64,000 nucleotides of DNA from an uncultured Gammaproteobacteria bacterium (GTDB lineage Bacteria; Pseudomonadota; Gammaproteobacteria; UBA9214): contig CAVYZN010000019.1 of NCBI GenBank assembly GCA_963773065.1, positions 14,247 through 78,246 of the forward strand. Reading direction: 5' to 3'. Both the position numbers and the translations under genes were made by a program. Below are positions 59,528-60,131 of the stretch, piece after piece; position 1 is the stretch's first letter; each line of letters opens with the position of its first letter. Under the pieces are notes generated by a model. That model searched no databases, was not told where the DNA came from, and saw only the letters and a program-made list of their open reading frames with translations.

Positions 59528-59538
59528 GGTCCAGGGCC
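59528..59538. repeat. Left copy of the 11-bp direct repeat GGTCCAGGGCC flanking the gltA insertion
   Basis: An identical 11-mer lies at 60121-60131. Both correspond to the gltA codons for ..ALD.. Confidence 0.9.
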
Positions 59539-60120
59539 GGGGAGGGGTAGCTTGGTGAGGAGAGAGGTGGGGGAGAGGGGAAAGAAGGAGTGGGAGAGGA
59601 GGAGAGAGGGGAGGAGGGGGAGGGGGAGGGAGAAGTGAAGAAGGAGGAGGGAGGGAGGGAGAGGGGGAGGGAGGGAGGGGGGGGGGAGGGGGGGGGGAGA
59701 GGGAGGGGGGGGGGGGGGGGGGGGGGGGGGGGAAGGGGGGGAGAGGGGAGGAGAGGGGGGAGAAGGGGGGGGGGGGGGGGGGAAGAGGGCGGGGGGGGGG
59801 GGGGGGGGGGAGGGGGGGAGGGAAGGGGAGAAGGAGAGGAGGGGGGCGGGGGGGGGCGAGGGGGGGAGGAGGGGAGAGCAGGGGGGGGGGGGGGGGGGGG
59901 AGGGGAGGAGAGAGGAGGGGCGAAGGAGAGAAGGGGGAGGGAGAGGGAGGGGGGGGGGGGGGAGGGAGGAAGAGGGGAGGAAGGAGAGAGGAGGGAGAGG
60001 AAGGGGGGGGAGGGGAGGGAGGGGGGAAGGGGGGGAGGAAAGGAGAGGGGGGAGAGGGAAGAAAGAGAAGGGAGGAGAAAGGGTAGGAGAGGGGGGGGGA
60101 GGGGTAAGGAGAGAGAGGGG
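59539..60120. repeat. 582-bp low-complexity purine (G/A) tract on the + strand
   Basis: The tract is almost only G and A. G homopolymers lie at 59705-59732 (28 nt), 59765-59782 (18), 59791-59810 (20) and 59881-59900 (20). Only scattered C/T occur, mainly within the first ~25 nt. Confidence 0.95.
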
Positions 60121-60131
60121 GGTCCAGGGCC
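60121..60131. repeat. Right copy of the 11-bp direct repeat GGTCCAGGGCC
   Basis: See 59528-59538. Confidence 0.9.

Follow-up and report, generated by a model that had tools for sequence, protein, structure and literature searches.

A 582-bp purine tract that splits gltA is very probably non-genomic sequence

The citrate synthase gene gltA is split, in the sequence as given, by 582 bp of almost pure purine. With a probability of about 0.9, this tract is junk low-complexity sequence that arose during sequencing or assembly and is absent from the genome, the true locus being an uninterrupted gltA of 1,296 bp. The organism should almost certainly be treated as having an intact gltA. The gene is intact after the removal of 593 bp, near-identical strains lack the tract, and tracts of this kind recur in long-read MAGs. 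The original prediction had left two readings open, an artefact and a real insertion. The former is favoured because removal restores the gene exactly and near-identical independent assemblies do not carry the tract, and further because the tract shows the features neither of a mobile element nor of a repeat expansion and resembles in texture the junk found in Nanopore-only MAGs; the same absence of element features weakens the latter. The sequencing platform and the precise point of entry of the junk are inferred. Positions refer to the whole stretch of DNA that was analysed, 64 kb in length and called the window in the following (Table 1).

Table 1 Coordinates of the purine tract, its flanking repeat and the two parts of gltA
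Feature	Position	Strand	Description
gltA 3' part	58902..59527	-	from after the 11-mer to the stop; HIDHEQN, GFGHRVY and NVDFYSG regions
GGTCCAGGGCC copy 1	59528..59538	.	exact 11-mer
Purine tract	59539..60120	+	582 bp, aperiodic; read as non-genomic junk sequence
GGTCCAGGGCC copy 2	60121..60131	.	exact 11-mer; codes (A)LD on the minus strand
gltA 5' part	60132..60790	-	starts with the ATG at 60790 and stops short of the 11-mer; first ~220 of 431 residues

Composition of the tract and its flanking repeat

The tract consists of 426 G, 141 A, 9 T and 6 C; G accounts for 73% and A for 24% of the bases, and purines make up 97.4% of the plus strand. Its extent and its position within the minus-strand gltA agree with the original prediction, as do the G runs of 28 (59705-59732), 18 (59765-59782), 20 (59791-59810) and 20 nt (59881-59900), to which a run of 14 (59949-59962) can be added. 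The share of G is about 0.6 at the edges of the tract and climbs to 0.9 in its middle; the nine T are all confined to the end regions, and the middle contains five of the six C. This composition is far beyond chance: outside the tract, the highest purine content of any 100-nt stretch in the window was 67%, and in 892 kb of related loci the highest purine or pyrimidine content of any 100-nt stretch was 81%. Stretches with zero purine in the latter scan were caused by runs of exactly 100 N in three of the loci (L004, L060 and L070), which represent scaffold gaps or masking. A search for other copies of the tract or similar purine blocks, which the original prediction had suggested for the whole assembly, revealed within the 64-kb window neither a second copy nor any further run of at least 25 purines or pyrimidines.

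The tract is aperiodic. The A positions give a flat autocorrelation, the longest internal repeat other than a homopolymer (25 nt) falls inside the range of shuffled sequences, and the run lengths are close to the expectation for independent bases. TRF returned no consistent repeat unit for the tract, its overlapping rows having periods of 1, 4, 11, 25, 56, 57 and 92 with 66-78% matches. A tandem-repeat expansion or polypurine microsatellite was rejected on account of the missing repeat unit and the flat autocorrelation. A group II intron or another structured RNA insert was rejected as well, since a cmscan search of positions 58500-61200 against Rfam (E ≤ 1) gave no match. The tract ends were also considered as degraded copies of the true flanks, an idea that was discarded because the similarity was no better than that of shuffles. 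GC3 and self-trained codon scoring of the window confused the strands at 63% GC, and their results were not used.

The 11-mer GGTCCAGGGCC occurs exactly twice in the 64-kb window, and these two copies bracket the tract. The match between them stops at 11 bp, with zero extra bases on either side, and the exact recurrence of an 11-mer at both edges has a chance probability of about 4^-11. The perfect direct repeat and the duplication of the A-L-D codons had both been described correctly.

An interrupted gene and an exact 11-bp flanking direct repeat, of the kind expected of a target-site duplication, are shared with insertions of IS elements and transposons. In contrast to these, the tract has no transposase or other ORF family, no terminal inverted repeats and no second copy, and its composition is unlike that of any known mobile element. 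Inverted repeats with arms at the tract ends were not found, and self-pairing of a purine-only strand is impossible. A Pfam search of the ORFs across the tract assigned no family to the tract-encoded peptides. An IS element or a MITE was rejected, the duplication being the sole IS hallmark present.

gltA as given, after repair and in relatives

The distance from repeat to repeat is 593 bp (3n+2), and gltA as given consists of two minus-strand ORFs that are offset by this length and do not share a single frame. The upstream ORF (59525-60790) comprises the gltA 5' part and continues through the tract in P, S, L and F codons. This read-through is trivial, since a pyrimidine-only strand has no stop codons. 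The downstream ORF (58902-59519) begins with MLHIDHEQ. Pfam Citrate_synt matched with positions 1-171 on the former and 175-357 on the latter. The ORFs and the Pfam matches thus confirm the predicted frame offset, which leaves the C-terminal catalytic half out of frame.

Repair of gltA was performed by deletion of 59539-60131 (593 bp, corresponding to the tract and one copy of the repeat) and yielded an ORF of 1,296 bp that codes for a type I citrate synthase of 431 aa. As an equivalog match above cut-off for the type I (Gram-negative, GltA-type) enzyme, the repaired protein scored 712 bits with NCBIfam NF004126 (cut-off 505; model positions 4-430 of 430) and 699 bits with TIGR01798 (cut-off 485; model positions 3-412 of 412). 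The repaired translation carries HIDHEQN, GFGHRVY and NVDFYSG, which we take from E. coli GltA to be the regions of the catalytic residues; the catalytic His/His/Asp regions are all present. In a tblastn search with the repaired protein, residues 1-223 aligned to the window at 100% identity. A second citrate synthase, raised in the original prediction as worth looking for, was not detected by this search in the 64-kb window.

In relatives the gene is uninterrupted. This applies to 80 of the 80 best loci from GTDB species genomes, the closest of which belongs to a Microflora Danica gammaproteobacterial MAG (90% amino-acid identity) and others to Thiohalobacter or Thiogranum MAGs, and it applies to all of the 120 closest proteins listed. 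A protein database cluster of 431 aa is up to 98.6% identical to the repaired gltA product.

Three near-identical contigs originate from independent short-read metagenome assemblies, namely L081 (JGI 3300044785), L202 (ENA ERZ27257230, 4.7 kb) and L203 (ENA ERZ27267750). They align on both sides of the tract at 96-98% DNA identity, and in each case the pair of alignments overlaps by exactly GGTCCAGGGCC, so that one copy of the 11-mer and no tract is present. Each contig carries an intact gene for 431 aa. The repaired junction is identical to L081 in 127 of 128 bases, and the whole repaired gltA is 98.4% identical, with 21 nt differing and zero indels over 1,296 bp; the differing codons comprise 12 synonymous and 8 non-synonymous ones. 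For the 3' part, the DNA identity to L081 is 97.7%, again without indels. Over the roughly 5 kb that the window shares with L202, every indel lies outside coding sequence. Judged from these alignments, the consensus around the tract is otherwise good. Absence of the tract from near-identical independent assemblies, together with an exact restoration of the locus upon its removal, is the behaviour expected of an artefact.

A real and recent event would have placed a 582-bp polypurine segment in gltA with an 11-bp target-site or microhomology duplication and inactivated citrate synthase; a polymerase or reverse transcriptase might have produced the segment by slippage or without a template. This explanation is very improbable, even though the exact 11-bp direct repeat at both edges agrees with it and both halves of gltA are undecayed, as a very recent event would give. 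Remnants of rtcA and of a nitronate monooxygenase-like gene lie nearby and roughly 400 bp are missing from L203 (see below), indicating that structural change does occur in this neighbourhood. Against a real insertion stand the three contigs at 96-98% identity without the tract, the lack of a second citrate synthase and of a further tract copy within the window, and the lack of inverted repeats, an ORF family or an RNA family. The G28 and G20 runs would be highly unstable in replication, and identical-looking tracts adjoin absurd homopolymer blocks in Nanopore-only MAGs of unrelated phyla. We know of no bacterial element or process that yields 582 bp of aperiodic, 97% purine DNA with G28 and G20 runs. 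It is extremely improbable that a genuine recent chromosomal insertion of polypurine DNA, made by non-templated synthesis or slippage (e.g. by a reverse transcriptase or repair polymerase) and accompanied by the 11-bp duplication, has knocked out the sole gltA of a free-living gammaproteobacterium and created an extreme G-quadruplex/H-DNA locus.

The tract matters mainly as a quality flag for the genome. An annotation of the sequence as given would report gltA as a pseudogene or as two fragments, and metabolic reconstruction would be led to the false conclusion that the TCA cycle is broken. We recommend reading the locus as an intact gltA, and flagging the 593 bp or excising them once the reads have been checked.

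Similar tracts in public assemblies

A pattern of 60 purines, G14 and 60 purines was scanned for in 185,579 genomes, one per species, and 80 loci were listed. Among these 80 loci, at least 12 are 'tig' contigs of a Danish activated-sludge MAG set, presumably obtained by Nanopore sequencing plus Illumina polishing, about 16 are poly-G contigs that stand alone, do not exceed 404 bp and come from short-read assemblers, and at least 24 are contigs of Microflora Danica MAGs (counted from record names). The Microflora Danica MAGs are Nanopore-only and were assembled with Flye (meta, nano-hq mode) followed by one Medaka round (PMC12313526). Their tracts often comprise neighbouring T, G or A blocks that are hundreds of bases long, which cannot be real. 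Successive T/G/A blocks were observed in the species representatives L087, L089, L093, L103, L107, L108, L125, L147 and others; L093 contains T700 and then a G/A block of 388, and L108 contains eleven purine tracts inside 6 kb. These internal blocks are evidently assembly or polishing junk, and they reside in contigs of up to several Mb.

Two further Microflora Danica contigs have conserved genes that are split by such sequence. In L145, a 243-bp tract of G/A noise with a central poly-G splits an SDR gene (adh_short 2-29 and 51-187). A P-type ATPase gene in L223 is divided by a G/A tract of 1.6 kb; E1-E2_ATPase positions 25-111 stop at the tract and the DKTGTIT region lies beyond it. Tracts like that in gltA hence split conserved genes in unrelated assemblies from error-prone pipelines.

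A comparable case is a Nanopore fungal assembly in which polishing with Racon and Medaka wrote inserts of homopolymer or aberrant composition without read support, and in which about 40% of the reads flagged as chimeric had flanks that map less than 50 nt apart, i.e. an internal bad stretch (PMC7500977). A literature search for exactly such a G/A artefact retrieved general or indirect papers only. With unsupported low-complexity long-read inserts (PMC7500977; L145, L212, L223), the gltA tract has in common that several hundred bases lie internally in an otherwise good contig. Purine-only noise, long G runs and the splitting of conserved genes are likewise shared with inserts in Nanopore assemblies, examples of which extend across unrelated phyla. 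These examples often replace real sequence and have no flanking duplication, whereas the gltA tract is accompanied by an 11-bp duplication and by no loss of sequence. Block homopolymers are common among the examples, whereas the gltA tract is G/A noise. Overall, the gltA tract behaves like a member of the known class of unsupported low-complexity long-read inserts and not like a real biological feature.

In two-colour Illumina sequencing, G corresponds to no signal and A to signal in both channels. The original prediction had named poly-G-type short reads stitched in at an 11-bp overlap as a possible artefact; dark-cycle junk of this kind would have been put by a de Bruijn assembler or gap-closer between contig ends that truly overlap by 11 bp. 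Such an overlap would neatly account for the duplication, and the high base accuracy around the tract is consistent with short reads. G-dominated junk with interspersed A, in which G/A noise turns into G runs, does exist in Illumina assemblies of the scan. L143 is a SPAdes contig of 404 bp (coverage 0.85) that passes from real sequence to G/A noise, poly-G and real-looking sequence, and L133 (G 84%, A 13%) is a short-read example in which such noise passes gradually into poly-G. Poly-G stretches of 299-730 bp also lie within isolate scaffolds, e.g. L082, L083 and L088. A short-read origin is nevertheless unlikely, and less likely than a long-read or polishing origin, because the tract exceeds any short read in length, is purine-only on one strand across both junctions and is noise-like. 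Independent junk reads of noise would have no common k-mers, and the longest G run (28) is below the usual final k, so that no run in the tract could bridge a usual k-mer. Junk tails of reads coming in from the right would appear on the plus strand as C-rich sequence, whereas the tract is purine-only on that strand up to both junctions. Unlike short-read junk, the tract lies inside a contig of at least 64 kb and is flanked on either side by real sequence of the same strand.

A second purine scan used the arbitrary 14-mer GAGGAGAGGGAGGA, which equals 1.5 units of a period-9 repeat. Because of this match to the period-9 unit, the scan mostly recovered (GGAGGAGAG)n arrays and stand-alone junk contigs rather than tracts like that in gltA. 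Polypurine/polypyrimidine arrays with a 9-nt unit were located at L204 2068-2262, L213 4695-4837, L218 6759-6947, L220 3009-3265, L224 2293-2447 and L226 323-483. The (GGAGGAGAG)n arrays and their variants are strictly periodic, span 140-260 bp and occur in Spirosoma, Dyadobacter, Leucobacter, Myxococcales and other contigs; in at least L213, the array ends just 5' of an ATG. These period-9 arrays look like real tandem repeats. The natural arrays (L213, L220, L224, L226 and L204) share with the gltA tract a purine-only strand. They have homopolymers of at most 8 within a strict period, whereas the gltA tract is aperiodic with G runs of up to 28. From the printed flanks, the arrays appear not to interrupt a conserved gene, whereas the gltA tract lies out of frame in a core gene.

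The stand-alone contigs L207, L209, L215, L219, L221 (2,306 bp) and L228 (4,449 bp) stem from genome assemblies of isolates (Pseudomonas, Shewanella and Acetobacterium bakii) and are 99-100% purine or pyrimidine. Four of them from Illumina isolate assemblies, L207, L209, L221 and L228 (858 bp, 912 bp, 2.3 kb and 4.4 kb), reach 100%. The sequence of the stand-alone purine contigs is noise-like, about 50:50 G:A and free of long homopolymers; they may derive from contamination or from polymerase side products in the library. The existence of the 100% purine or pyrimidine contigs suggests that such molecules can be present in libraries, which would suit an origin during library preparation: a polymerase active in repair or end-prep would have extended a nick with low-complexity purine sequence before re-annealing 11 nt further back, giving one real molecule from a genome without the tract. 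Strand displacement followed by re-annealing is consistent with the 11-bp duplication. The mechanism is conjectural, however, and the contigs differ from the gltA tract in texture, with about 50:50 G:A and no long G runs. We consider an origin of this type highly improbable.

Many publicly available long-read MAG contigs, species representatives among them, contain purine or homopolymer junk on the kilobase scale that splits real genes. Without filtering, such junk tracts will continue to turn up in screens for unusual low-complexity or G-quadruplex DNA.

Possible entry of the junk and the neighbourhood of gltA

A long-read or polishing origin of the gltA tract could be explained as follows. 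One long single-molecule read would have contained a stretch of meaningless purine-rich base calls; alternatively, a polisher may have filled a part of the draft that lacked support with low-complexity sequence. The junk-bearing read would then have become the backbone of the draft contig, with an insertion of roughly 0.6 kb that was backed by no other read and that consensus polishing was presumably unable to delete. Normal reads would align at the tract with a gap or split. The 11-bp duplication may have arisen because the read resumed 11 nt back from where it had stopped. It may also be a footprint of polishing, in which correct reads of the right flank would reach a few bases into the G-rich junk and the junk bases under these read ends would be rewritten to the true sequence. 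The extension of such a footprint would stop at the 11-mer because GGTCCAGGGCC is G-rich and the next bases leftward, ATGAAAATCA, are not.

Some observations count against an artefact. The clean 11-bp direct repeat is what a real insertion at a staggered cut would leave, and the long-read precedents L145 and L223 have no such duplication. With 73% G, 24% A and G runs of up to 28, the tract is unlike the block homopolymers that dominate the examples in Nanopore MAGs. In addition, the lack of coding indels over about 5 kb implies that the contig is not generally poor, and an artefact requires the assumption that the polisher failed only at the tract.

Several smaller changes were observed around gltA. 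A remnant of rtcA (RNA 3'-phosphate cyclase) is located on the plus strand at 56594-57396, with Pfam matches to RTC 1-79 in 56594-57067 and to RTC_insert 71-101 and RTC 171-220 in 56635-57396. About 160 middle residues are missing, which looks like an internal deletion with a change of frame. On the minus strand, a nitronate monooxygenase-like gene at 58417-58875 is reduced to its N-terminal part, corresponding to residues 10-157 of a 344-aa homologue in L001 and to positions 5-70 of 331 of Pfam NMO. The contig L203 (96% identical) lacks window positions 58350-58752, and its two alignments overlap by 10 bp; this deletion indicates that the stretch just downstream of gltA is structurally variable between strains. 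Upstream of gltA, at 60845-60876, an exact 16-nt tandem duplication contains ACTGAAGAACTACCAG twice. ACTGAAGAACTACCAG is present as a single copy in L081 and L203, and no indel was seen in comparison with L202, which thus appears to share the duplication. From this distribution among strains, the 16-nt duplication looks like a real polymorphism.
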